From an uncultured Acidobacteriota bacterium (GTDB lineage Bacteria; Acidobacteriota; Thermoanaerobaculia; Gp7-AA8), in assembly GCA_963741955.1 (NCBI GenBank), contig CAVUKB010000001.1, positions 320,001-384,000 on the forward strand: a DNA stretch of 64,000 nucleotides, read 5' to 3'. Of this stretch, positions 24,633-49,439 are shown piece by piece (position 1 is the stretch's first letter; each line of letters begins with the position of its first letter). A model generated the notes under the pieces. The model ran no database searches. It was given only the letters and a program-made list of their open reading frames with translations, and had not been told where the DNA came from. Both the position numbers and the translations under genes were made by a program.

Positions 24633-25967
24633 GTGAACATTGCGGTCGTTGGAACGGGCTATGTCGGGCTCGTCACCGGAGCCGGTCTGGCCGATTTCGG
24701 GAACGAAGTGACCTGCGTCGACATCGACGAGCGGAAAATTGATGCACTGAATCAGGGGAAGATCCCGATCTACGAACCGGGACTCGATGCGATCGTCGCA
24801 CGAAACGTGGAGGAGGGACGACTCGGCTTCAGCACCGATCTGGCCGGCGCAATCGAGAAAGCGCGGGCGATCTTCATCGCCGTCGGAACGCCCCAGCTCC
24901 CGGACGGGTCGGCCGATCTCCGGTACGTCGAAGACGTGGCCCGATCGATCGCGCACCACATGGATGGCCCGAAGCTGGTGGTCACGAAGTCGACCGTCCC
25001 GATCGGAACGGGGAAGCGCATCCAGCAGATTCTCGCCGAGTCGGGCAAGTCGCATCAGGCCATGGTCGTCTCCAACCCCGAGTTTCTGAGGGAAGGATCG
25101 GCGATCGAAGATTTCATGCGGCCCGACCGCGTGGTGATCGGTTCGTGGGAACCCGAAGCGGCGGAACTTATGAAGGAGATCTATGCCCCGTTGCACTCGC
25201 TCGAGATCCCGTTCGTGGCGACCACGGTCGAGTCGGCGGAGTTGATCAAGTACGCCTCGAATGCATTCCTCGCGACGAAGATCTCGTTCGTCAACGAGAT
25301 CGCCGCCCTCTGCGAAAGGCTCGGCGGCGACATCCAGGACGTGGCGAAAGGGATGGGTCTGGACCAGAGGATCGGACCGAAGTTTCTCCAGGCCGGTCCC
25401 GGCTACGGCGGGTCGTGTTTCCCGAAGGACACCAACGCCCTGGTGGACATCTCCCGTCGTGCCGGCTATTCGTTCCGGATCGTCGAGGCGGTGGTCGAAG
25501 TCAACGAGGCGATCAAACGGAGAATGGTGGACAAGGTTCTCGACGCAGTCGGCGATCTCGCCGGCAGGACCATCGGCGTACTCGGCCTGGCGTTCAAGCC
25601 GGAGACCGACGACATGCGTGAGTCACCGACCATCCCGCTGATCAACGGACTCCAGTCCCTCCGCGCGAACGTACGTGCGTACGATCCCGAAGCGATGGAG
25701 AATGCCCGGACGTTCTTCCCCGACATCACGTTCTGCCGCGATGCGTATGAAACGGCAACCGGTTGCGATGCCCTGGTCATCGCGACCGAGTGGAACGAGT
25801 TTCGCGCGCTGAACCTGGGGCGGATCAGATCCCTCCTGAAGGCGCCGGTGATCGTCGACCTCCGTAACGTATACGACCACCGGCGGATGGAAGCGGAAGG
25901 GTTCCGCTACTACTCGGTCGGCCGGCCGGCCGTAACCAAGCGGCAAGTCGCCGCGGGGGAGCGGTAA
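24633..25967 (+). CDS. ugd: UDP-glucose 6-dehydrogenase
   Basis: [25 protein letters not shown]. Confidence 0.95.
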
Positions 25968-26938
25968 TGGGGAAAGCGCTGGTCACCGGAGGCGCAGGAT
26001 TTCTCGGATCACATCTCTGCGATCTCTTCCTGGAGAGAGGTCACGAAGTCATCTGCATGGATAACTTCCTGACCGGCTCACCGAACAACATCAAGCATCT
26101 ACTCGGTCGCCCGGGCTTCAGCTTCGTGAAGTACGACGTGACGAACTACATCCACATCGACGGGCCGCTGGACTACGTGCTTCACTTCGCGTCGCCCGCC
26201 AGCCCGATCGATTACCTCGAGAAGCCGATCCAGACTCTGAAGGTCGGTTCTCTCGGGACGCACAAGACGCTCGGAGTGGCCAAGGACAAGAACGCGAGAT
26301 ATCTCCTTGCATCCACCTCCGAAGTTTATGGCGATCCACTCGTCCACCCGCAGCGGGAGGATTACTGGGGGAACGTCAATCCGGTCGGGCCGCGCGGAGT
26401 CTACGACGAGGCGAAGCGATTCGCGGAAGCGATGACCATGGCCTACCGCCGTTTCCACCACGTGGACACACGCATTGTCCGCATCTTCAACACGTATGGG
26501 GAGAGAATGCGGATGAATGACGGACGGGTGGTCCCGGCGTTCGTTTCCCAGGCGCTCCGCGGTGAGGATATGACGGTGTTCGGAGATGGATCACAGACCC
26601 GGTCGTTCTGCTACGTCTCGGATCTGGTGGAAGGCATCTACCGGCTGCTGATGTCGGACGAGGCGCAGCCCGTCAACATCGGAAATCCGAACGAGCTGAC
26701 GGTGCTGGAGTTCGCAAAGCAGATCCGGAAAGCCACCGATTCGACCTCCGAGATCGTGTTCAAAGCTCTTCCGGAGGATGACCCGAAGATTCGCAGACCC
26801 GATATTACCAAGGCGAGGGAAATTCTCGACTGGGAGCCGCACGTGCCGCTGGAAGAAGGACTGAAGCGAACGGTCGCGTATTTTCGCGAGCGGATCCTCG
26901 ACCAGGCCGCGGCAACTCCGGCGACCGGCAACTCATGA
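25967..26938 (+). CDS. uxs: UDP-glucuronate decarboxylase (UDP-xylose synthase) family SDR
   Basis: [37 protein letters not shown]. Confidence 0.88.
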
Positions 26939-36139: not shown

Positions 36140-38158
36140 ATGTCTGTTCAGGAAATCACGAACACGAGCCCCGCATCGGATCCGCTTTCGCGAGCTCCAC
36201 GCTCCGTCGTCAATGACGCGATCGCCTCCGCGCGTAAGCGACTCCTCGCCCTGCAGCACGAAGACGGCCACTGGTGTGGTGAGCTCGAAGGAGACACCAT
36301 ACTCGAATCGGAGTACGTGCTGACACTGTACTTCCTCCTCCGACGCGCCGACGAGCGGATGCGCAAAGCCGCGGAGTACCTCCGGCGACAGCAGCTCTCC
36401 GACGGCGCATGGGCCAACTACCCGGGCGGTCCGAGCGACGTCAGCGCCTCGGTGAAAGCGTACTTCGTGCTCAAGCTGATGGGCGATGACCCCGACGCTC
36501 CCCACATGGCGAGAGCGCGAGAGACCATCCGCGAGCTCGGCGGAGTCGAGGCGTGCAACTCATTCACCAAGATCTACCTCGCGATGTTCGGGCAGTACGA
36601 CTGGAATCGCTGCCCGGCCGTGCCGCCGGAGATGATCCTTCTTCCCGACGCCTCTCCGTTCAACATCTACAAGATGTCGTGCTGGTCGCGCGACATCGTG
36701 GTGCCTCTGTCGATCATCTGGGCGACGCGTCCCTCCTGTCCGGTTCCGGAGAATGCTTCCATCGACGAACTGACCGAGAAAGCGGCGCCCGCTCCACCCG
36801 CCAACCAGCGAAGTGCCCGCGATCGCGCCTGGACCGGATTCTTCACCGCGCTCGACGTCGCGCTCAAGCGGATCGAGAAGAGCCGTCTCCGTCCGCTTCG
36901 CAGGAAGGCAATCACCGCAGCAGAGGAGTGGATTCTCGAACGTCTCTCCGGCAGCGACGGACTCGGCGCGATCTTTCCGCCGATCATCAACACCATCATC
37001 GCGTTCAAGGCGCTCGGCTATGAGGATGACGATCCGCGGCTCGTCTCGCAGCTCGACGAGCTGGAAAAACTGGTCATCGAAGAGAGCGACGACCTTCGCG
37101 TTCAGCCTTGCTTCTCTCCGATCTGGGACACCGCAATCGCGATCCAGGCGTTATGTGAGTCCGGATCGAGCGGCAGCAGCGCCGACATCCTTCGTGCCGC
37201 GCGCTGGCTCCTCGGGAGAGAAGTCACCAGGCCCGGCGACGTTCAGCGGCTCCACCCGGAAGTTCCCCTCGGGGGGTGGTACTTCGAATATGCGAACGAG
37301 TTCTATCCCGACGCGGACGACACCGCGGAGGTCCTCACCGCTCTGAGCTACGTCCGATTCCCCGATTCGAAGGAGGATCGGCGCCGGGTCGAGGCGATGG
37401 CGCGTGGAATCGGGTGGCAGCTGGCGATGCAGAACTGCGACGGCGGCTGGGGCGCGTTCGACCTCGATTGCGACGACTACGTGCTGACTCTCATTCCGTT
37501 CGCCGATCACAACGCGATGATCGATCCGAGCTGTGAGGACATCACCGGACGCTCCATCGAGATGCTCTTCCGGCTCGGCTTCGACGCCGATCACAACGCG
37601 ATCTCCAGGGCGGTACGCTTTCTTCTCGACCGGCAGGACGACCACGGGACGTGGTATGGACGCTGGGGCTGCAACTACGTCTACGGAACGTGGCTCGCCA
37701 TCAGTGCGCTGGAGACGGCAGGAGAGCCGATGAACGACGATCGGTACCAGCGCACCAGTGAGTGGCTCCGCGCCAAACAGAACCACGACGGCGGGTGGGG
37801 CGAGCTGCCGCGCTCCTACGATGAACCGGAGATGAAGGGAGTGGGGCCGAGTACGCCCTCGCAGACGGCGTGGGCCCTGCTGACTCTTTTCAAGCTCGGA
37901 GACTACGATTCGCCCGAGGTCCGTCGAGGGGTGCAGTATCTTCTCGACCGGCAATTGGAAGACGGTTCCTGGAACGACGAATACTGGAGCGGGACCGGCT
38001 TCCCGCGAGTCTTCTATCTGAAGTATCACCTCTACGCGCTCTACTTCCCGCTCTGGGCGCTCGCACGTTTCGAGCGGCACGAGAGGGGAGCGGCGCGACG
38101 CGAGATCACCACCGAGCGCACTTCGAGCGATGCTTCCGCGCGGGAGGTGGTGGCGTGA
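36140..38158 (+). CDS. shc: Squalene-hopene cyclase
   Basis: QW repeats; YPDADDTA (DxDD) motif; WYGRWG. Confidence 0.97.
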   Translation: MSVQEITNTSPASDPLSRAPRSVVNDAIASARKRLLALQHEDGHWCGELEGDTILESEYVLTLYFLLRRADERMRKAAEYLRRQQLSDGAWANYPGGPSDVSASVKAYFVLKLMGDDPDAPHMARARETIRELGGVEACNSFTKIYLAMFGQYDWNRCPAVPPEMILLPDASPFNIYKMSCWSRDIVVPLSIIWATRPSCPVPENASIDELTEKAAPAPPANQRSARDRAWTGFFTALDVALKRIEKSRLRPLRRKAITAAEEWILERLSGSDGLGAIFPPIINTIIAFKALGYEDDDPRLVSQLDELEKLVIEESDDLRVQPCFSPIWDTAIAIQALCESGSSGSSADILRAARWLLGREVTRPGDVQRLHPEVPLGGWYFEYANEFYPDADDTAEVLTALSYVRFPDSKEDRRRVEAMARGIGWQLAMQNCDGGWGAFDLDCDDYVLTLIPFADHNAMIDPSCEDITGRSIEMLFRLGFDADHNAISRAVRFLLDRQDDHGTWYGRWGCNYVYGTWLAISALETAGEPMNDDRYQRTSEWLRAKQNHDGGWGELPRSYDEPEMKGVGPSTPSQTAWALLTLFKLGDYDSPEVRRGVQYLLDRQLEDGSWNDEYWSGTGFPRVFYLKYHLYALYFPLWALARFERHERGAARREITTERTSSDASAREVVA

Positions 38159-39156
38159 GATTCCCCTTGCACCTCACCACCGACACCATCCAGCATCAGG
38201 TCCGCAACGCGCTGCGTGGACGGACCCGATACCCGTTCGTCCTGATGCTCGAGCCTCTCTACACCTGCAATCTCGCCTGCATCGGCTGCGCGACCGAACG
38301 GCACACCGGGAAGCTCAAGGACCGTCTGCCTCTCGAGAAGTGCATCGAAGCGGTGGAGACCTCCGAAGCGCCGGTGGTCTCGATCTGCGGCGGAGAGCCG
38401 ACTCTCTACCCCGAGCTTCCCCAGCTGATCGAGGAGATCATCGCCCGCCGGCGGCACATCTACCTCTGCACGAACGGACTCCTCCTCGACGAGAAGGTGT
38501 ACGGCGTGATACGCCCGCACAAGCGGCTGATGATCAACGTTCATCTCGACGGAATGCGCGAGACGCACGACATGGTCTGTGCGCGCGAAGGGGTGTTCGA
38601 CAAGGCGATGGAGACGATCCGGAAGGGCGTCGAGCTCGGACATCACATGATGGCCAACACCACGGTGTTCCGCGAGACCGAAGTCTCGGAGGTGGAGGAG
38701 CTCTGCCAGCTGCTGACCGACGAAGGGGTGGAAGGAATGCTGGTCAGCCCCGGCTATCACTATGAATCGGTGGAGGGCGAGATGTTCCTCACCCGAAACG
38801 AGATTCGCGAGAAGTTCATGAAGATCCTCGAGATCTCGAAACGCTACCGTCTCACCTCGACGCCGATGTTCCTCGAGTTCGCGGCCGGATTGCGCGACTA
38901 CAAGTGTTCTCCGTGGAGCACCGTCACGTACACGCCGCTCGGGTGGAAAGGGCCCTGCTATCTGATCGGCAAGCGCTACACGCATTCGTGGGACGAGTTC
39001 TGGAACGGCACCGACTGGACGTACTGGGAGTCGCGCGAGGATCCGCTCTGTCAGAACTGTGCGATGCACTCCGGCTTCGAAGCCTCGGTCGTTCGCGAGC
39101 TCCCGAAGCACCCCGGAGACATGTTCCGGCTGGCGGCCTGGAACCTTCTGGGGTGA
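38155..39156 (+). CDS. hpnH: Adenosylhopane synthase (radical SAM)
   Basis: VLMLEPLYTCNLACIGC, GGEP, CQNCAMHSGFE; GTGA overlap with shc. Confidence 0.9.
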   Translation: MRFPLHLTTDTIQHQVRNALRGRTRYPFVLMLEPLYTCNLACIGCATERHTGKLKDRLPLEKCIEAVETSEAPVVSICGGEPTLYPELPQLIEEIIARRRHIYLCTNGLLLDEKVYGVIRPHKRLMINVHLDGMRETHDMVCAREGVFDKAMETIRKGVELGHHMMANTTVFRETEVSEVEELCQLLTDEGVEGMLVSPGYHYESVEGEMFLTRNEIREKFMKILEISKRYRLTSTPMFLEFAAGLRDYKCSPWSTVTYTPLGWKGPCYLIGKRYTHSWDEFWNGTDWTYWESREDPLCQNCAMHSGFEASVVRELPKHPGDMFRLAAWNLLG

Positions 39157-39277
39157 TACCGGCCGACCTGCGCGCGGGCTTTGCTGGAGCAGGGGCGCGG
39201 GACTCGACCGGCGGCACACAGATCGCGCAAATGACTCCGCGGGAATGTATCTTTGAACCAGGGAGTGCCTTCACTGC

Positions 39278-40267
39278 ATGACGACCCTCGTCACCGGCGG
39301 CACCGGCTTCATCGGCGCACACATCGTTCGCGCGCTCCTCGACCGCGGTGAAGACGTCCGCTGTCTGGTTCGTCCTTCGAGCCGCCTGACGAATCTCGAG
39401 GGACTCGACGTGGAGATCGTGCGGGGCGATCTCTGTGACCGTGAGTCGATCCGTCGCGCCGTCACAGGTGCGGAAACCGTCTACCATTGTGCGGCCGACT
39501 ATCGGCTCTATGTCCGAAATTCTGCCGAGATCTACGCGACCAACGTCGAAGGGACCCGCAACGTGCTGCGCGAGTCGGCGGATGCCGGAGCCCGGAAGAT
39601 CGTCTACACCAGCTCCGTCGGCGCGCTCGGGCGCTGCCGTGACGGACATCCGGCGGACGAGTCGGTTCCGGCCGGCGAGGCGGAGATGATCGGCCATTAC
39701 AAGCGGAGCAAGTTCCGAGCGGAGCGGGTCGCGGAACAGTTCGCGGCCGGCGGTTCGCCGGTGGTGATCACCAATCCTTCCACTCCGGTCGGAGAGCTCG
39801 ACGTCAAACCGACTCCCACCGGGAAGATCATCGTCGAATTTCTCCGGGGGAGGATGCCGGCGTACGTCGACACCGGGATGAATCTGATCGACGTGCGCGA
39901 TGTCGCGGCGGGTCATCTGCTCGCCGCTGCTCGTGGACGGACGGGAGAGAGATACATCCTTGGAAATCGAAACCTGACCCTGGCCGAGATCCTGGCGATG
40001 CTCGCGAGGTTGACCGGCCGGCCGCGGCCGAGAGTCAGGCTTCCTCACTGGATCGCGATGACGGCGGCGATCGGAAATGAAGCGTTCTGCCGGATCACCG
40101 GAGGCGATCCGTCGATCCCCCTGGAAGGCGTGAGAATGGCCCGGCACCGGATGTACTTCGATTCGTCGAAAGCAGTCAGTGAGCTCGGGCTCCCCCAGAC
40201 ACCGGTCGAAGAGGCTCTCGGACGCGCGGTCCGGTGGTTCCGGGAACATGGATACGCATCCGGCTGA
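39278..40267 (+). CDS. hpnA: Hopanoid-associated NAD-dependent epimerase/dehydratase
   Basis: GGTGFIG, AADYRL, YKRSK, DVKPTPTGKII. Confidence 0.92.
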   Translation: MTTLVTGGTGFIGAHIVRALLDRGEDVRCLVRPSSRLTNLEGLDVEIVRGDLCDRESIRRAVTGAETVYHCAADYRLYVRNSAEIYATNVEGTRNVLRESADAGARKIVYTSSVGALGRCRDGHPADESVPAGEAEMIGHYKRSKFRAERVAEQFAAGGSPVVITNPSTPVGELDVKPTPTGKIIVEFLRGRMPAYVDTGMNLIDVRDVAAGHLLAAARGRTGERYILGNRNLTLAEILAMLARLTGRPRPRVRLPHWIAMTAAIGNEAFCRITGGDPSIPLEGVRMARHRMYFDSSKAVSELGLPQTPVEEALGRAVRWFREHGYASG

Positions 40268-40339
40268 GCGGCTTCTTTCTTGCAAAAGGTCTGGCGAGGT
40301 GATCCGCCGGCCCGGTGCGACGAAGGCGGGTATTCGAGA

Positions 40340-41146
40340 ATGATGTCCGGTAACCTGAACGACGGAAACCACGGGTCGCCGATCGCGGTGATCGCCGCAC
40401 TTCCTGAAGAGATCCGGCCATTTCTCCGTCGACTTCCGCACGTCGAGACGAGGCAATCTGGTGGTGTGACCCTGCGGGAGGGGACGCTCGGGCCGGAGCG
40501 TGTCGTCGTCGCCGTCACCGGCGATGGCGCGATTCGGGCCGCCCGAAGCCTCACTGTAATTCTCGATGCCGTGAGGCCCCGCGCCATTCTCGGCGTCGGC
40601 ATCGCTGGCGCTCTCACGCCCGGCCTCTCGGTCGGCGATCTTCTCGTTTCGGAGCGCGTCTGTGCGTGGCGCGGCAGCTGGTTCGAGCCCGACGGTGAGC
40701 TGCTCGCCCGTGCGCTTGCGTCCGGCCCACCTTCGGTAAGAGGAACGGTCGTGACGTCCGATCGGATTCTGGTCAACGCAGGTGAGAGAGCACACGTGGG
40801 CCGCTTTCTCGGAAAGAGTGGAGAAGCGGCGGTCGATATGGAGTCCGCGGAGTGGGCAAGAGTCGCGACGGATCGGGGTACTCCCTGGCTCGTCGTCCGG
40901 TCGATCTCCGAGACTGCAGTCGAAGACCTCCCTGATTACCTGCCGAAATGCCTTCGTGCCGACGGCAGCCTCAGCCGGCTGCGGGTCGTGCAACGTGCCG
41001 GCCTTCAGCCACGATCGATTCCGGCGCTGATCGAGATGAGGCGAAGGCTTCACCGCTCCGGAATCGCGCTGGCGGACTATCTCCAGATGTTCCTCCATCG
41101 TATGATGGACCATCCTGTCGGACGTGCACTCGGGGCGAGGAGTTGA
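40340..41146 (+). CDS. hpnG: Hopanoid-associated phosphorylase/nucleosidase
   Basis: GIAGAL, AVDMES, VRSISE (PNP/MTA nucleosidase fold); cluster context. Confidence 0.8.
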   Translation: MMSGNLNDGNHGSPIAVIAALPEEIRPFLRRLPHVETRQSGGVTLREGTLGPERVVVAVTGDGAIRAARSLTVILDAVRPRAILGVGIAGALTPGLSVGDLLVSERVCAWRGSWFEPDGELLARALASGPPSVRGTVVTSDRILVNAGERAHVGRFLGKSGEAAVDMESAEWARVATDRGTPWLVVRSISETAVEDLPDYLPKCLRADGSLSRLRVVQRAGLQPRSIPALIEMRRRLHRSGIALADYLQMFLHRMMDHPVGRALGARS

Positions 41147-41152
41147 CGATCG

Positions 41153-42067
41153 ATGACGGCTCTTGACGTACTCCTGGAGAAAACCAGCCGCACTTTTGCG
41201 CTCGCGATTCCGCTTCTGCCCGAGCCGACCCACCGCGAAGTCACCATCGCTTATCTGCTGTTCCGGACTGCAGACACGTTCGAGGATGCACCAGACTGGA
41301 CCGCGGAAGAAAAGGCTGCTGCCCTCGCCGCATTCTGTGACGTTCTCCGCTCGCCGTCGATCGAACGGGCCGAGGCGTTGTCGCGCGATTGGGTGTCGCA
41401 ACGTCCCGCGACGCATGAAGGCTATCTCCAGCTGCTCGCCGAGTTCGCCGGAGTGCTCGATGCGCATCTCGCTCTCTCCGAAGAAGCGCGGGAGGAGATC
41501 ACGCAGCACGTGATCCGCTCCGCGGAGGGGATGTCGCGCATCGTGAGGCGCGAGGGAGGGGTGGAGCTCGAATCGATCGACGAGCTGCGCGAGTACTGCT
41601 ACATCGTTGCGGGGATCGTCGGCGAGATGCTGACGGAGCTCTTCCTTCTCGGGCGGCCGCGGCTCGAACCGGTCGCAGCGGCGCTGCGACAGCGAGCGAA
41701 GCTGTTCGGCGAAGCTCTCCAGCTGGTGAACATCCTCAAAGACTCCGAAGTCGATGCGTCCGAGGGTCGTGTCTACCTGCCGCGAAACACTTCGCGATGC
41801 GAGGTGTTCGACCTTGCGCGGGAGGACCTCGGCGCGGCGTCGGAGTATGTGCTGAGCCTCCAGAGCGCCGGTGCGCCGCGCGGGATCGTCGCGTTCACCG
41901 CCCTCCCTCTGGAGCTGGCCTGGGCTGCGCTCGACAGGATCGAGCGCGACGGGCCGGGATCGAAGATCAGCCGTCCGGAGGTCTACCGGATCACGCGGCG
42001 AGTGAAGAGCGCGCTGGGTCGGAACGAGCCTGCCGTCCGCGGCCATGCACTGCAGAAGGCGCGCTGA
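41153..42067 (+). CDS. Squalene/phytoene synthase family (SQS/FDFT1-like)
   Basis: TSRTFAL, YLLFRTADTFED, YCYIVAGIVG, LQLVNILKD. Confidence 0.88.
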   Translation: MTALDVLLEKTSRTFALAIPLLPEPTHREVTIAYLLFRTADTFEDAPDWTAEEKAAALAAFCDVLRSPSIERAEALSRDWVSQRPATHEGYLQLLAEFAGVLDAHLALSEEAREEITQHVIRSAEGMSRIVRREGGVELESIDELREYCYIVAGIVGEMLTELFLLGRPRLEPVAAALRQRAKLFGEALQLVNILKDSEVDASEGRVYLPRNTSRCEVFDLAREDLGAASEYVLSLQSAGAPRGIVAFTALPLELAWAALDRIERDGPGSKISRPEVYRITRRVKSALGRNEPAVRGHALQKAR

Positions 42068-42394
42068 AGAATATTCTGTCAATCTTGGTTTCTGCAGCAT
42101 TTTTTTGCTCGAAACGCCGCTTTTCGCGAATTATATTCTGTCCGGATGCCTCCGCGTCGCTGAACCGTCACACCTGCAACTCCCCCTCCCGGCGGTCTTT
42201 TCGCTCTCGCTCTGGTGAGCAGGTCGCTCGCACGAAAGATTCGTGTATGGACGTTTACGTACTGAGAATGGAGGACGATCGGTCCGGACTGGAGGTGGTC
42301 CGGAATGATCTGTCGGTCATTGGATAGATACCCTCTCGTGATGGCGCAAATCGCGCCCGGGTGAGGCGCTCCGTGAAAGGGCGGCGTAACCCGA

Positions 42395-42754
42395 TCAGTC
42401 GACGCGTTCGCTCGGCCGATCCTTCGCGAGCTCGAGGATGTAGCGTGGCCGCCCGTCGGCATCGGCGACTGCGAACACCTTTCCGAACGGTTTGAGGTCG
42501 AGCGGCAGGATCACCCTGGCGGTCTTCGAAATCTCGTAGAACGCACGGTCCGCATCATCGACCAGCCAATAGAGCTCCGCCTCGCCGCTGCTCCCAACAG
42601 GGGCATCGGTGGCGATCGCGAAGTGATCGAACTGGACGAAGGTCGGATGCGTCCGCTCGACCTCCAACCCGAGGACGTCGGTGTAGAAGCGAGTGGCAGC
42701 GTCGATGTCCTTGACGTATTCGACGACGAATCCGAATCGGGGATGAATGCTCAT
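42395..42754 (-). CDS. VOC/glyoxalase family protein
   Basis: VKDIDAATRFYTDVLG..FAVADADG; AAGGA RBS. Confidence 0.85.
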   Translation of the reverse strand: MSIHPRFGFVVEYVKDIDAATRFYTDVLGLEVERTHPTFVQFDHFAIATDAPVGSSGEAELYWLVDDADRAFYEISKTARVILPLDLKPFGKVFAVADADGRPRYILELAKDRPSERVD

Positions 42755-42939
42755 GCAGATTTCCTTTCGTTCATGGCCTCCTCCGGGCCGTTCACCGCTC
42801 CCTGCAGTTCGGCCCATCGAGGTGACGAATGGCGACTCCGGTGCGAACGAGCTTGCTATCGCCGTGCCGAAGAGCGCGATTCGGATCGACGCGCCGGGTG
42901 CGGACCGGCGGCGGCGATCCGTGAGTGGCAACTTTGACT

Positions 42940-42993
42940 TCCGACCCGTCCGACCCTTCCGACCCGTCCGACAGGTTCGACATGTCAGACACG
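42940..42993 (+). repeat. Nonamer tandem array, 6 x TCCGACNNN
   Basis: tccgacccg tccgaccct tccgacccg tccgacagg ttcgacatg tcagacacg. Confidence 0.8.
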
Positions 42994-43066
42994 ACCTGGC
43001 CGCTCCTCAGCGAATTCTTTGCGTGCATCGAACCGAGCCGCAGAACGGAAATCTCTACCCTCTTTC

Positions 43067-44293
43067 TTACGCGGGAGCTTTGCGCGGCGAATCCCGCCCC
43101 ACCGCATGGGAGCCTCCGGTCGCACCGACGACCGATGCGTAAAGCTCCGAGTAGGCTTCGACCGTCAGTTCGATGGCGTGAGCGCGGGTACGGCGGAGAC
43201 TTTCTGCAGACATGGCCCCGTAGTGGACCCCGATCGCCGCGCTCAGCTTCTCCATTTCCGCCGCGGCGTCATCGGGATCGTTCGCTCTGAAGAGCGCCCC
43301 GTTCACTCCGTCCTCGACCAGTTCGGGGAGCGCTCCCGCGTTCGCCGCGAGAACCGGAAGTCCCGCCGCCATCGCCTCGAGTGTGGCGATACTCTGGAGC
43401 TCGACGTCGCCCGGCATGGCGAAGAAGTCCGCCGCGGTGAGGAGCGCCGGGAGATCCTCCTCTGCGACGAAGCCGACGAAGAGAACCCGTTGCGAGATGC
43501 CCCGCCGTTCTGCGAGCCGCTTCAGATTCGTCGCCTCGCGTCCGCGCCCCGCGATGATCAGGCGGAGGCGCGACTCCGTGGTTCTGGCCATCGCCTCGAG
43601 GAGCACCTCGACCCGCTTTTCGTAATCGAGACGCCCCACGTAGATGAATACGACATCGGATGGATCGAGTTCGAGCCGCGAACGCACGTCTTTCGAGCGA
43701 TCCTCTCCCACCGCGAAACGGGAATGGTCGACTCCGCACGAGATCGCGTGCACCGGGACTCCATCGAGATGTTTCCGGAGCAGCGCGGCCGCGGTTTCGG
43801 TCGGACTGGTGGCGACCTTCGCCTTGCCGAAGACGCGCGCCACCATCCACCAGAGGAACCGCTCGAGCGTCTTCTGCCCGATCTTCGATCGCGAGATCAG
43901 CGGCACGTGCGGGACGATATTTTCGGGGACGAAGTGGTTCGACGCGATCAGAGGAATGTTCATCGACGAGGCCGTCCGGGCGACGCTGCGGCTCAGCGGA
44001 AAATGATCCTGGATGTGCACGACGTCGGGCCGGATCTCCTCGAGGAGTCGCTGAACTGCGCGACCGGGGGCGGGGGTCACGCGGACGTCGGGATAGAGCG
44101 GCCGCAGCTCGATTGCGGGGATTCCCGCGAGACTCACTCCGCCGTCGATCGCACGCGTCGGCGCAAAGCGCTCTGCCGGAACGGCGACCGTCACCTCGTC
44201 ACCGCGCTCGACCAGTCCCCTCGCGAGCCGTGCAGTGAATACGCCGGGTCCGTTCAGCGGTCCCCAGGTCTGTCCGGCCATCAGGATCTTCAC
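43067..44293 (-). CDS. GT4 glycosyltransferase (diacylglycerol glycosyltransferase-like)
   Basis: YVGRLDYEK, ELQSIATLEAMAAGLPV; GTGA overlap with the upstream gene. Confidence 0.9.
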   Translation of the reverse strand: MKILMAGQTWGPLNGPGVFTARLARGLVERGDEVTVAVPAERFAPTRAIDGGVSLAGIPAIELRPLYPDVRVTPAPGRAVQRLLEEIRPDVVHIQDHFPLSRSVARTASSMNIPLIASNHFVPENIVPHVPLISRSKIGQKTLERFLWWMVARVFGKAKVATSPTETAAALLRKHLDGVPVHAISCGVDHSRFAVGEDRSKDVRSRLELDPSDVVFIYVGRLDYEKRVEVLLEAMARTTESRLRLIIAGRGREATNLKRLAERRGISQRVLFVGFVAEEDLPALLTAADFFAMPGDVELQSIATLEAMAAGLPVLAANAGALPELVEDGVNGALFRANDPDDAAAEMEKLSAAIGVHYGAMSAESLRRTRAHAIELTVEAYSELYASVVGATGGSHAVGRDSPRKAPA

Positions 44294-45411
44294 GCGGACT
44301 TCTCCGCCGCGGAGTCGTTCTGCTCTTCGCTCCTTCCGTTTCCCTGATAGGAGCGCTGACCGAATCGCCTGATTTTCCAGAGGAAGAGGAGTCCCACCAC
44401 GAGCGGAAGCCAGAAGTTGACGCTGCGGAAGACCAGCGTCGCTGCGACCGCCTTCGACTGATCGACCCCGAGCGAGGTGAAGATCAGGGTCATGATCGCC
44501 TCGACGATCGCGACTCCCTGCGGGATCGCGACGATGACGAAGAAGACGATCCCCAGCCCGAACGCGGCGACCAAGCCTCCCGCCGGAATCGACTCGCCGA
44601 ACGCTTTCACCAGCACCCACAGCCCGAATGCGTTCACTCCGTGGACCAGGATGGACCAGAGAATGGAGATGGTGAGCATCTTCGGATGTCTGCCGATGGC
44701 CATCGAGGCTTCGCAGAATTCGCCCGCGATCTTCTCCGGCCACTCCTTCGGGAGAAGGTCGGGATGCTTGAACCAGCCACCCACCTTCGAGACGAGTTTG
44801 CGGACCCAGCCGAGGATCTTCTTCACCCATTGCGGCTCCCAGCGGGAGAAGACGATCAGCATCACCAGGATGACCGTGTAAATGACGAAGACCCCCACGC
44901 CGATCGCGTCGTACGTCTTGAAGATGTGGTGGCGCACCAGGAACGCGACTCCCCAGAACACGAAGGGAATCAGGGTGACGAGATCGATGATCAGCACCAG
45001 CACCACGCCGATCGCGGTTCGCGATCCGCTCTGGCCGCGCTGGATGGCGTCGTCTATGAAGAGCGCCGCGGCCCCCGCGCCGCTCGGGACGACCGCATTG
45101 ACGAAGATGCCGGCGAAGACGACCGGCAGGAGCTCGAGCGCCGCGCTCTCGACGCCGACCACCGCGAATCCGAATGTGTAGAGGAGCGCGTAACCGAAGA
45201 AATACGCGATGTGGATCAGGACGCCGGCCGCGATCCACCACCAGTTCACATCCGACATCGCCTTTGCGAGCTTCTGAAAATCGGTGAAGTGCCCCGCGAC
45301 GAGGGCGGTCATACCGACGAGGACGATGATCATGAAGATCCGTCCGGCGATCGTCTTCGTCTTGCTGGCGCCGGACTGGTTCTTCCCCCCTTTCTTTTTC
45401 AGAAGGCTCAC
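44290..45411 (-). CDS. Lysylphosphatidylglycerol-synthase TM / flippase-like membrane protein (HpnL-like)
   Basis: About 8 TM helices; NAVVPSG, IPQGVAIVE, LVFR..FWLP; GTGA overlap. Confidence 0.8.
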   Translation of the reverse strand: MSLLKKKGGKNQSGASKTKTIAGRIFMIIVLVGMTALVAGHFTDFQKLAKAMSDVNWWWIAAGVLIHIAYFFGYALLYTFGFAVVGVESAALELLPVVFAGIFVNAVVPSGAGAAALFIDDAIQRGQSGSRTAIGVVLVLIIDLVTLIPFVFWGVAFLVRHHIFKTYDAIGVGVFVIYTVILVMLIVFSRWEPQWVKKILGWVRKLVSKVGGWFKHPDLLPKEWPEKIAGEFCEASMAIGRHPKMLTISILWSILVHGVNAFGLWVLVKAFGESIPAGGLVAAFGLGIVFFVIVAIPQGVAIVEAIMTLIFTSLGVDQSKAVAATLVFRSVNFWLPLVVGLLFLWKIRRFGQRSYQGNGRSEEQNDSAAEKSA

Positions 45412-47255
45412 GTGGTCAGCCTTTCGGTCGCGTGCGGATTGACGCGGTCGTTCGGAATGTCGCCGTGCAGCGAGACGGGGGGACGTCGTTCGCGTGCGAG
45501 ATAGCGCCGCAGAAGCTCCTCCCGAGTGATCCAGATCCGGAGCCGCTGCAATCGGGAGGCTCCGGGAGCCGATCCTCCCGCGTTGAACGTCCGGGTGAGG
45601 AGAACGACGTAGACGTGCTCCCAGAAGGTCGTGAACCGGGACCACCCGGAGTGACGAGTCTCCACCCGTTCGAAGCGGAAGCCCCATCGCGAGGCCATGG
45701 CCTGCAACTCGGCGAGCGTGTGCGAGGTGCTCAGCGACGTCTCTCCGACGAAGATCTCCGCAGTGTGCAGCCCTGGCTGATCCGAAACGTACTTTGCGAG
45801 GAGGCGGAGGGTGAGGAGAAAGCGCCGGCTGAACTCACGCCCCCACGAGAGCGAATCACCCGATGTGCGCGAGGGGACGTGCTCGTTCCAGAGGTGAAAC
45901 TGGATCGCCTGCTCCGCACCGATGTCGGCGGCGCGCTCGCTCTCCGGAAGTGCCTCCTCGCTCTCGAGCGGTCCGAGACGGAAGATGCACCTCGGGTCGT
46001 TCGAGAATTCGTGGATGTGGTAACGCCTGCGTAGAATCCGGTCGACGACGAGGATTGCGTGACGGATGGTCCAGTCGAAGATTCGCATAGAGTGGCGGTG
46101 GCCGGGGGATGCCGTCAGCCGTCCGTTCCGCTCGACTGCGAATTCTCTGCCTCTCCATCGGACCCTCCGTCCGGCGAGCCCTCCCGTCCAGACCGCCATG
46201 CCGAAGATCTCCCGGATCGGAAGCGCCAGGAGCCATCGATCGAGCTCGGACGCCCCGCTCAGATGCAGCGCCCTCGCCGCTGCGGCGAAGCGGATCGCGA
46301 AAGCGACCAGAAGCGTGGACGTGATGCCGAGCCATTCTCCCGGAGCGTCGACGAGCCACGCCGCCGCAGCGATCAGAGCCAGAGGCGCGGTCAGGGTCAG
46401 GAGAATCCCCGGGTACTCCACGGTGCGGCTGACCCGAATCGCCCGGGCCCAGCGGAGCTCACGACTCCAGAGATCTCCGAGCCTCGTCGGACCGAGAACG
46501 CTGGTGACGAAGAGCCGCGAGAGCTCGATCCGGAATCCGGCGCGAGCGACGCGATGGCCGAGCTGGTAGTCATCCGCGAGATACTCTCCGACCGCGCCGA
46601 AATCGCCGATCGTGGCGAGGACATCGCGGCGCACGGCGATCGCGGCGCCGAGGGCGAAGCGCATGCCGAAGAGGCGCCGGGCGGCAATCACGCCGGGAAG
46701 GAAAGAGGTCACCATCCCGAGCGCCTCCATTCTCGCGGCGAACGAACCGATCGCGCCCCCCCGGTAGGGAAAGGTCACCATCCCCACTCTGTGATCCGCG
46801 AGGGGGGCGGCGGCGCGGCGCAGGAAATCGGGAGGGACGCGGATGTCACTGTCGATCGCGACGAGGACATCGTGCCGCGCCTCGCGCGCGAGTGCGTCCA
46901 GAATGCCGGCCTTCGGATTCGGCGTCTTCGGATCGTGCACGATCAGCCGGACACGATCGTGTCCATGGATCTCCTGCAGTCGCCCGATCAGTTCGACCAC
47001 CGGATCTTCCGCAGACGCGACCCCGAAGATCACCTCGAGCTCCGGATAGTCCTGCAGGAGATGGCTCTCGAAGTTCTCCATCGCCTCGAAATCGACTCCA
47101 CTCACCGCCTTGAGGATCGAGACCGGAGGAAGCGCATCCACGTCGGGCTCAGTGGGTTTGCGGCCGAAAAAGCGGTTCATCCAGAACGTCGCCACGATCC
47201 AGTAGACACAGCTGGCCGCCGCGAGGAGGGTCAGGACTCCGGCGACGATGCTCAT
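45408..47255 (-). CDS. hpnI: HpnI-like bacteriohopanetetrol GlcNAc transferase fused to a C-terminal YkoP-like domain
   Basis: PPVSILK, QDYP, NPK, DSDIRV, LADDYQLG, RWARAIR, then ~225 extra aa (HEFSNDPRCIFR, FHLWNEH). Confidence 0.8.
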   Translation of the reverse strand: MSIVAGVLTLLAAASCVYWIVATFWMNRFFGRKPTEPDVDALPPVSILKAVSGVDFEAMENFESHLLQDYPELEVIFGVASAEDPVVELIGRLQEIHGHDRVRLIVHDPKTPNPKAGILDALAREARHDVLVAIDSDIRVPPDFLRRAAAPLADHRVGMVTFPYRGGAIGSFAARMEALGMVTSFLPGVIAARRLFGMRFALGAAIAVRRDVLATIGDFGAVGEYLADDYQLGHRVARAGFRIELSRLFVTSVLGPTRLGDLWSRELRWARAIRVSRTVEYPGILLTLTAPLALIAAAAWLVDAPGEWLGITSTLLVAFAIRFAAAARALHLSGASELDRWLLALPIREIFGMAVWTGGLAGRRVRWRGREFAVERNGRLTASPGHRHSMRIFDWTIRHAILVVDRILRRRYHIHEFSNDPRCIFRLGPLESEEALPESERAADIGAEQAIQFHLWNEHVPSRTSGDSLSWGREFSRRFLLTLRLLAKYVSDQPGLHTAEIFVGETSLSTSHTLAELQAMASRWGFRFERVETRHSGWSRFTTFWEHVYVVLLTRTFNAGGSAPGASRLQRLRIWITREELLRRYLARERRPPVSLHGDIPNDRVNPHATERLTT

Positions 47256-48103
47256 GCCGCTCGCTCCCGCAGGGTGCGATACGTGGAGAGCGTGAGGCCC
47301 GCGCTCTCGAGCGCTGCACGGAAGCCGGGACTGACCAGTGTGTCGAGGTCGGTCGGATTCGGTCCCAGCGCTTCTCCGAGCGAGATCGTCGACGGATGGA
47401 AGTAGAGCTCGGCAGTGGAAGCGGAGAGAGCGGAGAGCACTCGGAGTACGTAGCGCTCCTCCATCCGTCCACTCTGCATCAGTCCATAGACGCGTTCGAC
47501 GGTGGCGAACGGCTCGTGACGCAGCTTCCGGCGCGCGCGCCATCCGAGCGCGGCAAAGCTGAGCGCCCAGCCGAGCTTCGTGATCAGATCGCGGTGGTCG
47601 TAGCGGAGCGCGAGCCCGAGGTCGTCCGCGGGGATCCGGATACCTCCGGCTCCATATTTCCGTGCGAGGGGGAGCATCCGGTCGAAGACGACCGGATGCA
47701 TGTGCATGTGCAGATGGCCGTCGACATGCGCGAGACGGAGACCGGTGGCGGCGAACCGTTCGAACTGTGCTGCGATCTCGCGGGAGAGCTCATCGCGGGC
47801 GGCGGGATTGAAGAAGCAGCGGATTCCCTGGCGAGCCGGGTCGTCGGGGAACTTCCCTTCAGGACCGGTGATGGTCGGAAGATCGGCGTGAGAGAGAACC
47901 GCACGACCCGAAGCGACCACGACGTGCAGCCCTACGGCAAGCTGCGGAAAACGGAGCGCGATCTTCACCGCCTCTTCGACCGCATCTCCGGTGACCATCA
48001 GGCTGGCGCTGGTGAGCACGCCTTCCCGCAGCGCCCGTTCGATGGCGGCGTTGATCTCGACCGTGCGGCCGAAATCGTCGGCATTGATGATCACCGAGCG
48101 CAT
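47252..48103 (-). CDS. hpnK: HpnK / ChbG-YdjC deacetylase
   Basis: INADDFG, TSASLMV, HVDGHLHMH, ELYFHP; ATGA overlap with hpnI. Confidence 0.9.
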   Translation of the reverse strand: MRSVIINADDFGRTVEINAAIERALREGVLTSASLMVTGDAVEEAVKIALRFPQLAVGLHVVVASGRAVLSHADLPTITGPEGKFPDDPARQGIRCFFNPAARDELSREIAAQFERFAATGLRLAHVDGHLHMHMHPVVFDRMLPLARKYGAGGIRIPADDLGLALRYDHRDLITKLGWALSFAALGWRARRKLRHEPFATVERVYGLMQSGRMEERYVLRVLSALSASTAELYFHPSTISLGEALGPNPTDLDTLVSPGFRAALESAGLTLSTYRTLRERAA

Positions 48104-48194
48104 AGGATTCCCTCATGACGAGCGCGAGCGCTTTCGAGCGAACTCGAGCAATTCCCGGACCAGAAACGAGAGCGATTGAGAAACTCGAAACCGT

Positions 48195-49439
48195 CTACTC
48201 GTATCGTAGCGCGTCGGAAGGGCTGAGGCGGGCTGCGCGGGCGGAGGGAAGGATCGTGGCGAGGCAGGAAACGACCACGGCGAACCCGGTGATGATCGCG
48301 AGGTCGCTCCACTTCGTCACGAAAGGGATCGACGAGACGAAGTAGACCTCGGCGATCTCGCGCGGGAACGAGACGAGGTGATAGCGGGTGATGATCCAGC
48401 AGACGATCACCCCGAGGCCGACTCCCGTCGCAGTTCCGATCAGCCCCACCAGCGTTCCGTACCAGATGAAGATCCCGCGGATGAAACGGCTCTCGCCGCC
48501 CATCGACATCAGAATGCCGATCTCTTTCCGCTTCTCGTGAACGGTCATGATCAGCGTGGAGACGATATTGAACGTGGATACGAAGACGATCAGACCGATC
48601 ACGATGAAGAGGACGAGCTGCTGGATCTTCAGCATCGAGAAGAGCTGATGGTTCATCTCGCGCCAGTCCGTCACCGCGTACTGCTCGCCCGTGCGCTCAT
48701 TGACCGCCTTCTCCACAATATCGAGATCCGCCGATGGCTGCAGCCGGATCTCGACCAGGTTCACTCCGTTCGGCGAGCCGGTGAGTTGGCGCGCTTCGGC
48801 GAGATCGAGAAAGATCCAGCGCGAGTCGTATTCGTAGAATCCGGTGTCGAAGACGTTCGAGACCATGAAGGTCCCGGACTGCGGGAGAAAAGAGCCTGCG
48901 TGCTCGCTGGGAACGGTGATGGTCAGAGGTGACCCGGCCGAGACTCCGAGCCGCTGGGCGAGGTACTTCCCGACCGATACCCCGGGATAGCCGTCGGAGT
49001 GGAACCCGTTCGGACCGATGATCTTCACCAGCATCGGGGAAGTCTTCGCACGCGACGGTTCGATGCCCTTCACCATTACCTGGGTGCCCGTCGCGAGCGA
49101 TTCGGACGACGCGAGCGCCTGCTGGAAGAGGACGGGAGAGGCCTCGCGCACGCCGGGCGTTCCGCGGATCTCGGCCAGGACCTTCTGTGGGTTGTCCATT
49201 CCCGACTCGACGGAGTAGACGAAGAGCTCCGCATTGCCGCCGAGGAGCTTCTTCTGGAGATCCTGCCGGTACCCGGTCATCAGAGCCATGGAGATGACCA
49301 GCGCCATGACCCCGATCACCAGCCCGAGGATCGAGACGACGCCGACGGCGGAGACGAGCTTGTCGGTAGGACGCTTGAGGTATCGCCACGCGACCTCGAG
49401 CGACAGGATCCGCGCGCTGCTCTTGCTCACTTCTTCCAT
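48195..49439 (-). CDS. LolC/LolE (MacB-FtsX family) ABC permease
   Basis: AWRYL, FNIVSTLIMTVHEKRKEIGIL, PSARAARL. Confidence 0.9.
   Translation of the reverse strand: MEEVSKSSARILSLEVAWRYLKRPTDKLVSAVGVVSILGLVIGVMALVISMALMTGYRQDLQKKLLGGNAELFVYSVESGMDNPQKVLAEIRGTPGVREASPVLFQQALASSESLATGTQVMVKGIEPSRAKTSPMLVKIIGPNGFHSDGYPGVSVGKYLAQRLGVSAGSPLTITVPSEHAGSFLPQSGTFMVSNVFDTGFYEYDSRWIFLDLAEARQLTGSPNGVNLVEIRLQPSADLDIVEKAVNERTGEQYAVTDWREMNHQLFSMLKIQQLVLFIVIGLIVFVSTFNIVSTLIMTVHEKRKEIGILMSMGGESRFIRGIFIWYGTLVGLIGTATGVGLGVIVCWIITRYHLVSFPREIAEVYFVSSIPFVTKWSDLAIITGFAVVVSCLATILPSARAARLSPSDALRYE

Follow-up and report, generated by a model that had tools for sequence, protein, structure and literature searches.

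Glucosaminyl hopanoids are made from bacteriohopanetetrol (BHT) by HpnI, which gives BHT-N-acetylglucosamine (BHT-GlcNAc), and HpnK, which gives BHT-glucosamine (BHT-GlcN), the latter being converted to the cyclitol ether by HpnJ (PMC12583986, PMC5462960). PMC12583986 describes a species without hpnJ that has 100% BHT-glucosamine, and treats bacteriohopanepolyol head groups as biomarkers, with many observed structures that have no known genes. N-acylglucosaminyl-BHT has been reported from Alicyclobacillus acidocaldarius (PMC8537080), and glycosaminyl glycerolipids with an N-linked acyl group from Thermus, Meiothermus and the Chthonomonadales (PMC4318418). For glucosaminyl-phosphatidylglycerol, the gpgSDF operon of Pseudomonas aeruginosa unites the GT4 glycosyltransferase GpgS, a deacetylase and a UPF0104 flippase, and has been compared with hexSDF of Clostridioides difficile (PMC12713373). 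HpnL (TIGR03476) is a hopanoid-associated UPF0104 membrane protein whose function is described as still open (10.1101/2025.07.29.667474). Here we describe a four-gene operon that resembles both the Hpn and the Gpg systems in part and consists of hpnK, an hpnI fused to a YkoP-like domain, a flippase-like gene and a GT4 gene. It lies in a 64,000-nucleotide stretch (positions 320,001 to 384,000 of contig CAVUKB010000001.1, GenBank assembly GCA_963741955.1) of an uncultured Acidobacteriota bacterium (Thermoanaerobaculia; Gp7-AA8). This whole stretch is called the window, and positions are counted within it.

We read the operon as two modules that would jointly assemble a decorated amino-sugar head group on BHT and export it, a reading to which we give a little less than an even chance. 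The broader conclusion, that the bacterium makes and exports an amino-sugar lipid more elaborate than the textbook product, is probable from the gene content. The four open reading frames (ORFs) span 48103-43067 on the minus strand and neighbours are joined by 4-base overlaps, ATGA, GTGA and GTGA in turn, which bears out the translational coupling claimed in the original prediction and gives coordinates for all three overlaps:

48103..47252, minus strand: hpnK, the first gene, a YdjC-family deacetylase of 283 amino acids; TIGR03473 286.2 bits (cut-off 232.6), PF04794 213.3 bits
47255..45408, minus strand: hpnI::YkoP-like fusion gene, 615 amino acids; ATGA overlap with hpnK at 47255-47252
46101..47255, minus strand: hpnI part of the fusion, residues 1-385, a GT21 lipid glycosyltransferase; TIGR03472 313.6 bits (cut-off 310) over residues 2-381, PF13506 145 bits
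45408..46100, minus strand: YkoP-like C-terminal domain of the fusion, residues 386-615 (conserved core about 397-592); PF22790, below cut-off
45411..44290, minus strand: flippase-like membrane protein (UPF0104 / LPG_synthase_TM), 373 amino acids with 8 hydrophobic segments; GTGA overlap with the fusion gene at 45411-45408
44293..43067, minus strand: GT4 glycosyltransferase, 408 amino acids, the last overlapping gene; GTGA overlap with the flippase-like gene at 44293-44290

In the first module (HpnK and HpnI::YkoP), the GT21 part would transfer GlcNAc to BHT and HpnK would then remove the acetyl group; these steps are proposed because of the family membership of the two proteins and the neighbouring shc-hpnH-hpnA-hpnG genes. 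Without HpnJ the free amine would not be converted to the cyclitol ether, and the fused YkoP-like domain would re-modify it, most likely by N-acylation to N-acylglucosaminyl-BHT as in Alicyclobacillus, for which acyl-coenzyme A, acyl-(acyl carrier protein) and aminoacyl-tRNA are candidate donors. The second module (flippase-like protein and GT4) would be a compact lipid glycosyltransferase and translocator cassette with a gpgS/gpgF-like logic. The window's GT4 belongs to a clade whose members repeatedly adjoin YkoP. At the cytoplasmic face it would perhaps glycosylate the YkoP product, or else the same acceptor lipid, and the UPF0104 membrane protein would move the finished lipid to the outer leaflet. 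A second sugar on BHT-glucosamine and a companion glycolipid are roles of the GT4 that cannot be told apart from the sequence. The further-glycosylated, translocated hopanoid of the original prediction survives in the presence of hpnI and hpnK, the absence of hpnJ and a partial linkage of the GT4. For the wider GT4 family, a tie to hopanoid producers is not supported.

The hopanoid setting of the operon is provided by the genes that face it:

36140..42067, plus strand: convergent hopanoid core operon of shc, hpnH, hpnA, an hpnG-like gene and a squalene-synthase-like gene
42395..42931, minus strand: glyoxalase-like ORF of 178 amino acids, 135 bases downstream of the GT4 gene; PF12681 30.2 bits (cut-off 30.1)

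The shc gene (36140-38158, plus strand) scores 687.8 bits with TIGR01507 (cut-off 431.1), and hpnH (TIGR03470, 358.6 bits; cut-off 225.05) and hpnA (TIGR03466, 478.9 bits; cut-off 367.65) pass as well; dxs is also on this strand. The segment 40280-42067 (plus strand) encodes divergent forms, an hpnG-like protein (TIGR03468, 116.4 bits; cut-off 187.1) and a squalene-synthase-like protein (TIGR01559, 90.7 bits; cut-off 286.75), both well below cut-off. The end of the four-gene operon is about 1 kb from the shc-hpnH-hpnA-hpnG operon and the two are convergent, as first described, with the correction that a glyoxalase/bleomycin-resistance-like ORF sits between them on the strand of the four-gene operon; its membership of that operon is uncertain. 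HpnJ (TIGR03471) is absent from the whole genome, which is 99.1% complete, the best of four matches having 60.8 bits against a cut-off of 577.6; the earlier statement that the window holds no hpnJ is in this way borne out and widened. For hpnO, a preprint states that no specific profile exists (10.1101/2025.07.29.667474).

Elsewhere in the host lineage, shc was found in one genus among the 24 others of the family (a tally that includes the unpublished genome G030), and a search of 300 further genomes of the phylum gave no GT4 orthologue at E <= 1e-60. Because of these two counts the hopanoid genes and the operon look like one sporadic block, which is consistent with acquisition by transfer. 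No orthologue of the fusion protein was found in 40 relatives of the same class (including the unpublished G022 and G030), the best match being 36% identical and confined to the glycosyltransferase part.

Compared with the HpnI-HpnK(-HpnJ) pathway, the locus is alike in that its GT21 and YdjC proteins pass the HpnI and HpnK cut-offs beside shc, hpnH, hpnA and an hpnG-like gene; it differs in the lack of HpnJ, in the 230-residue YkoP-like domain on HpnI and in the two further translationally coupled genes. The closest worked example is gpgSDF, which, like hexSDF, shares with the window operon the grouping of a lipid glycosyltransferase, a flippase of UPF0104 type and an amine-exposing deacetylase. 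Both GT-B halves of the window's GT4 are above their cut-offs (PF00534, 129.8 bits; PF13439, 92.3 bits), and it reaches no NCBIfam cut-off, the best near-full-length model being the GlcNAc-phosphatidylglycerol synthase NF053787 with 104.8 bits against 480 (residues 59-388). Further differences from gpgSDF are a deacetylase of the YdjC family and not COG3233, the additional glycosyltransferase (GT21), the YkoP domain and an acceptor that is probably a hopanoid. The flippase-like protein is predicted to be multi-pass, passes PF03706 (LPG_synthase_TM, 114.5 bits; cut-off 33.4) and TIGR00374 (73.2 bits; cut-off 43.2), and shares with HpnL the PF03706 superfamily and a position among hopanoid genes. 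The label 'HpnL-like' applied to it earlier is correct at this superfamily level and fails at the level of HpnL itself: the HpnL model TIGR03476 (cut-off 195.65) has no match in the genome at E <= 0.001 (nine candidates scored) and is not among the NCBIfam models that the protein hits at E <= 0.01, and the protein, unlike HpnL, travels paired with a GT4.

The most informative novelty of the operon looks like the YkoP domain, which the original prediction treated as an extra domain on HpnI, rather than the GT4. A phmmer search with the C-terminal 236 residues of the fusion protein gave 708 cluster representatives at E <= 0.001 and 366 at E <= 1e-10, down to 4.5e-30; most of the 708 are free-standing proteins of 200-250 amino acids. 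Among long representatives that bear the domain (569-682 amino acids), GT21 and YkoP occur together in all 10 tested, and in 9 of these the YkoP score is above the cut-off. With PF22790 the window protein has 17.8 bits when searched whole (residues 449-585) and 21.3 bits when the domain is searched alone, the cut-off being 27; the fused homologues P0005 and P0006 pass with 45.6 and 29.1 bits. In the ESM Atlas, a YkoP family set is common to 24 of 30 hits (best score 0.98). Because relatives and fused representatives pass the cut-off and the Atlas hits share the family set, the homology of the fused domain to YkoP appears sound despite its own sub-cut-off score. The window copy thus resembles the YkoP family in phmmer homology, in its cut-off-passing fused relatives and in language-model features, and differs in its fusion to HpnI and its score. 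The 615-residue architecture is rare: among 120 relatives listed, only five (P0002-P0006, 41-46% identical) cover 88-96% of the protein, the remaining ones being of ordinary HpnI size, about 390 amino acids. A Pfam search of its own genome found no second YkoP copy.

In an alignment of 80 YkoP sequences, Arg and His residues are invariant and the motif ELHLWNEH is conserved; conservation falls in the N-terminal half. Because of the invariant polar residues and the recurrent fusions to GT21, the domain is probably a working enzyme. The AlphaFold2 model of the domain (predicted local distance difference test score 85.2; predicted template modelling score 0.77) has GNAT acyltransferases as its top rows in Foldseek (E 0.012-0.1). 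A sequence profile search of solved structures with the YkoP alignment gave four matches (best E 0.012), none of them meaningful. In a VIA-align comparison with 48,161 chains, 35 of the best 50 rows are named acetyl- or acyl-transferases, GNAT proteins or acyl-homoserine-lactone synthases, with Z of 5.2-6.4, values that, being below 8, can reflect a common arrangement. These matches point weakly to a GNAT-like fold, from which we infer acyl transfer as the candidate activity. The chemistry proposed for HpnI, HpnK and YkoP is like that of NodC/NodB/NodA and LpxC/LpxD, in which transfer of GlcNAc is followed by loss of its acetyl group and then by attachment of a longer acyl group to the amine; no sequence relationship connects these systems with the operon, and the acyl step of YkoP would be the counterpart of the last reaction. 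The fusion protein has hydrophobic segments at residues 3-21, 284-302 and 309-327, and a weaker one followed by RRVRWRGR just N-terminal to the YkoP domain, which hints that the domain is cytoplasmic. The YkoP family is uncharacterised: a full-text literature search for the name, as seen in titles and abstracts, surfaced no paper on its function.

To place the domain among other bacteria, loci were collected from one genome per species with a 12-row alignment as query, and the best 80 of 158 relatives, mostly from Chloroflexota and from 79 genomes, were kept; flanking genes were called by local phmmer with the window proteins. GT21 and/or YdjC are in the fetched flank of 26 of the 80 loci, mostly in the order YdjC-GT21-YkoP, and at seven of the 26 GT21 and YkoP form one ORF. 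Neither is present at the other 54 loci, many of which are short. At five of the 80, shc or hpnA lies within 8 kb, in some cases with hpnG, hpnH or squalene-synthase-like genes. YkoP adjoins three unrelated kinds of candidate translocator, namely UPF0104, DedA/VTT and small EamA-like proteins. DedA and EamA-type proteins act as lipid translocators. Because three translocator families adjoin YkoP or GT4 in different loci, the pathway seems to include a transport step.

The EamA-like membrane protein (about 138 amino acids) immediately precedes YkoP, in the same orientation, at 32 of the 80 loci, for example at L042:6278-6691 (plus strand) and at 31 further loci among L017-L096; it has 25.6 bits with PF00892 and does not reach the cut-off of 28.2. 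Another fusion with a membrane transporter is seen in P0025 and P0054, two HpnI relatives of 540 amino acids in which an EamA domain (PF00892, precomputed) is joined to the GT21 part. A candidate second kind of YkoP fusion, the YdjC and YkoP hybrid at L017:7503-8645 (plus strand; P0122), was rejected, as its YdjC part spans no more than positions 2-95 of a model 266 positions long and shc is represented in its genome (G041) only by a 344-bit fragment. Deletion in a decayed pathway, or an error of long-read assembly, is the likelier origin of this ORF.

The order YkoP-translocator-GT4 recurs in several phyla. In L017, from an Ardenticatenaceae genome (Chloroflexota), orthologues of the flippase and the GT4 follow YkoP (E 9e-108 and 6e-107), and they do so in L022 from NC10, with a partial flippase and a GT4 match interrupted by one in-frame TGA. 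At L039 and L087 of the Chthonomonadales (Armatimonadota), a DedA/VTT protein takes the place of the flippase beside YkoP and the GT4. In G048, a genome of the Chloroflexia, the flippase-GT4 pair and shc itself are convergent, the YdjC-GT21-YkoP trio being elsewhere, beside hpnA and hpnG. The flippase orthologue in L097 has E 7e-67. The GT4 orthologues are 44-49% identical. In the five YkoP-bearing genomes with a GT4 orthologue shc was found in all (once as a fragment), against 17 of the 74 without (Fisher p = 0.0012); when only shc genes that pass the cut-off are counted the figures are 4 of 5 and 16 of 74 (p = 0.013).

A reverse survey with a six-orthologue alignment against metagenome contigs gave 333 GT4 relatives, the best 80 of which were kept (38-58% identical). 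Directly upstream of the GT4 is a VTT gene in 52 and a UPF0104 gene in 14, so that a flippase candidate is present in 66 of the 80, the other 14 being mostly too near a contig end for the upstream gene to be judged. In a FastTree phylogeny of 94 GT4 sequences, the window's clade has 36 tips from 32 distinct loci (Shimodaira-Hasegawa-like support 0.948) and holds all 14 UPF0104-coupled loci and the six YkoP-carrying loci with a VTT gene. Linkage to hpnI, hpnK, YkoP or shc is seen at 15 of the 32 loci in this clade and at none of the 58 outside it (p 1e-8, one weak GT21 hit in L182 being set aside), a p-value that, like the others from these linkage counts, exaggerates the strength of the link since the contigs are related and partly duplicated. 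Co-conservation of the flippase and GT4 with hpnI and hpnK, the test named in the original prediction, is accordingly found inside one GT4 clade and in five reference genomes; it does not extend to most hpnK-hpnI-YkoP loci, which lack the cassette, or to most cassettes, which have no hpn genes nearby.

Several results weigh against the two-module reading, and they concern the domain, the acceptor and the cassette. For the domain, besides the score under the Pfam cut-off and the fact that every VIA-align match is below Z 8, Foldseek returned no match to the model at E <= 0.001. GNAT enzymes bind coenzyme A through a glycine-rich loop after the fourth strand, and no conserved loop of this kind was found in the YkoP alignments. 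For the cassette, a GT4 orthologue is present in only five of the 79 YkoP-bearing genomes and absent from 74. None of the 80 metagenome GT4 loci has shc within 8 kb, and YkoP, GT21 and HpnK are each found at only five of them. The four strongest GT4 matches in Chloroflexota are VTT-GT4 pairs or lone GT4 genes in genomes without shc and with no hpn genes nearby.

The cassette results bear on an ordinary end point, in which the cell would make BHT-glucosamine only, as the hpnJ-lacking species of PMC12583986 does, the YkoP domain would be a non-catalytic or regulatory appendage, and the cassette would make an unrelated glycolipid or surface sugar and merely be co-transcribed. It accords with the scarcity of hpn genes around the metagenome cassettes, with the weak fold match and with the Chloroflexota sample: among 301 genomes (including the unpublished G444, G551, G579, G633 and G678), the GT4 profile occurs in 50, shc in 49 and both in 13, so that shc is present in 13 of 50 GT4-positive (26%) and 36 of 251 GT4-negative genomes (14%; Fisher p = 0.057). 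Because of this weak enrichment and the strongest matches in shc-lacking Chloroflexota, the GT4 family as a whole is a general 'lipid glycosyltransferase plus translocator' cassette. The notion that the whole family is hopanoid-specific, raised by the presence of shc in five of five genomes, was rejected on this sample and is kept for the window's clade only. We regard the ordinary end point as unlikely. It sits poorly with the 4-base overlaps that join all four genes, with the recurrence of YkoP-translocator-GT4 across phyla, with the finding that all 15 linked loci belong to the window's GT4 clade, and with the invariant polar residues and GT21 fusions that suggest a working enzyme in YkoP.

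The acceptor is the second point at which the two-module reading is exposed. The window HpnI, which had the lowest score of all GT21 proteins scanned, lies just 3.6 bits above its cut-off, and both models are passed widely at YkoP loci, by 12 of 12 GT21 and 7 of 7 YdjC proteins tested. Seven of these 12 GT21 proteins come from genomes without detected shc. Across the YkoP survey, a cut-off-passing shc is present in no more than 20 of the 79 genomes (4 of 5, 3 of 38 and 13 of 36), with fragments in two more. Because the HpnI and HpnK cut-offs are also passed in genomes without detected shc, the model scores do not prove a hopanoid acceptor, and surveys that equate hits to these models with 'makes BHT-glucosamine' may over-call. 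The seven GT21 proteins (from L023, L028, L034, L043, L053, L062 and L086) score 335-385 bits with the HpnI equivalog, as do the other five (cut-off 310), and are from genomes without shc at E <= 1e-50; the automatic HpnI and HpnK names at these loci may be wrong about the substrate.

These observations open the way to a pathway outside the hopanoids, in which the product of GT21, YdjC and YkoP would be a glucosaminyl glycolipid, N-modified and carried on diacylglycerol or some other acceptor, as it has to be where shc is lacking, the GT4 would add a sugar or make the acceptor, and the adjacency of shc would be incidental. GT21 also covers diacylglycerol and ceramide glycosyltransferases. Where GT21 or YdjC is beside YkoP, shc was found in nine of 26 genomes, as fragments in two and not in the remaining 15, many of the shc-negative genomes being metagenome bins of unknown completeness, which blunts the count. 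PF22790 is passed in Bacillus subtilis, Thermus thermophilus and Deinococcus radiodurans, and Thermus, Meiothermus and the Chthonomonadales have the N-acyl glycosaminyl glycerolipids described in PMC4318418. At the window itself about 1 kb separates the operon from that of shc, and the two gene sets look like one sporadic block; in G048, likewise, shc is convergent with the flippase-GT4 pair, and hpnA and hpnG are neighbours of the YkoP trio. With the local linkage set against the wider distribution, we find an acceptor other than BHT improbable here, to about the same degree as the ordinary end point.

A third account starts from the flippase-like gene, which directly follows and overlaps the YkoP domain. 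PF03706 is the flippase domain of MprF, and the MprF synthase domain has a GNAT-type fold, so that the YkoP-like domain and the UPF0104 protein might be the synthase and flippase halves of a split MprF-like system, adding an amino acid and not a fatty acid and then flipping the lipid. A possible coupling of amino acids to hopanoid polyols by HpnL-type proteins is raised as speculation in a preprint (10.1101/2025.07.29.667474). We consider this account very unlikely: no MprF synthase or Fem-type structure is among the best 50 VIA-align rows, PF09924 was not found in the fusion protein, and the replacement of UPF0104 by DedA/VTT or EamA-like proteins at other loci indicates that the pairing is unspecific. 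A full-length MprF (LPG_synthase_TM and LPG_synthase_C, 951 amino acids) is encoded at the metagenome locus L173:9648-12500 (plus strand), just downstream of a VTT-GT4 cassette.

Within the two-module reading, a more specific proposal is that YkoP is a lipid-hexosamine N-acyltransferase that would yield N-acylglucosaminyl-BHT and, in bacteria that have no hopanoids, the N-acyl-glycosaminyl glycerolipids known from Thermus and Chthonomonadales, with the GT4 clade adding a hexose and the interchangeable UPF0104, DedA or EamA-like protein exporting the product. To our knowledge no gene has been assigned to N-acylglucosaminyl-BHT. We hold this proposal as possible and on balance unlikely, the occurrence of YkoP alongside N-acyl glycosaminyl lipids in these bacteria being correlations only. 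A Bacillota YkoP query aimed at Alicyclobacillus gave only six close relatives, with uninformative names. If YkoP were such an N-acyltransferase, its reach would extend beyond hopanoids to the N-acyl amino-glycolipids of thermophiles, and HpnI and HpnK would be general amino-glycolipid enzymes and not hopanoid-specific. The operon offers candidates for a BHT-glucosamine-modifying enzyme in bacteria that lack HpnJ, for a co-travelling glycosyltransferase clade and for a translocator.

The first gene of the operon, hpnK, starts with ATG at 48103 with GAGGGA upstream, a purine-rich stretch lies 6-9 bases 5' of every start, and the GTG start of the GT4 gene is consistent with the N-termini of its orthologues. 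A promoter and terminator scan of 42000-48400 gave one promoter-like and one terminator-like site, no more than in shuffled sequences and neither at an operon boundary, and the base composition is unremarkable. Around the metagenome GT4 loci, an ABC transporter, an epimerase and a sigma factor are each near the GT4 in 8-9 of the 80 and give no clue to the pathway. In the window, a gene of the UDP-glucose 6-dehydrogenase family and an epimerase/dehydratase gene are at 24633-26938 (plus strand), 16 kb from the operon, and a dehydrogenase of the same family is encoded at L087:11685-13151 (plus strand), 1 kb downstream of the GT4 orthologue; these neighbours are a possible hint at a uronic-acid donor.

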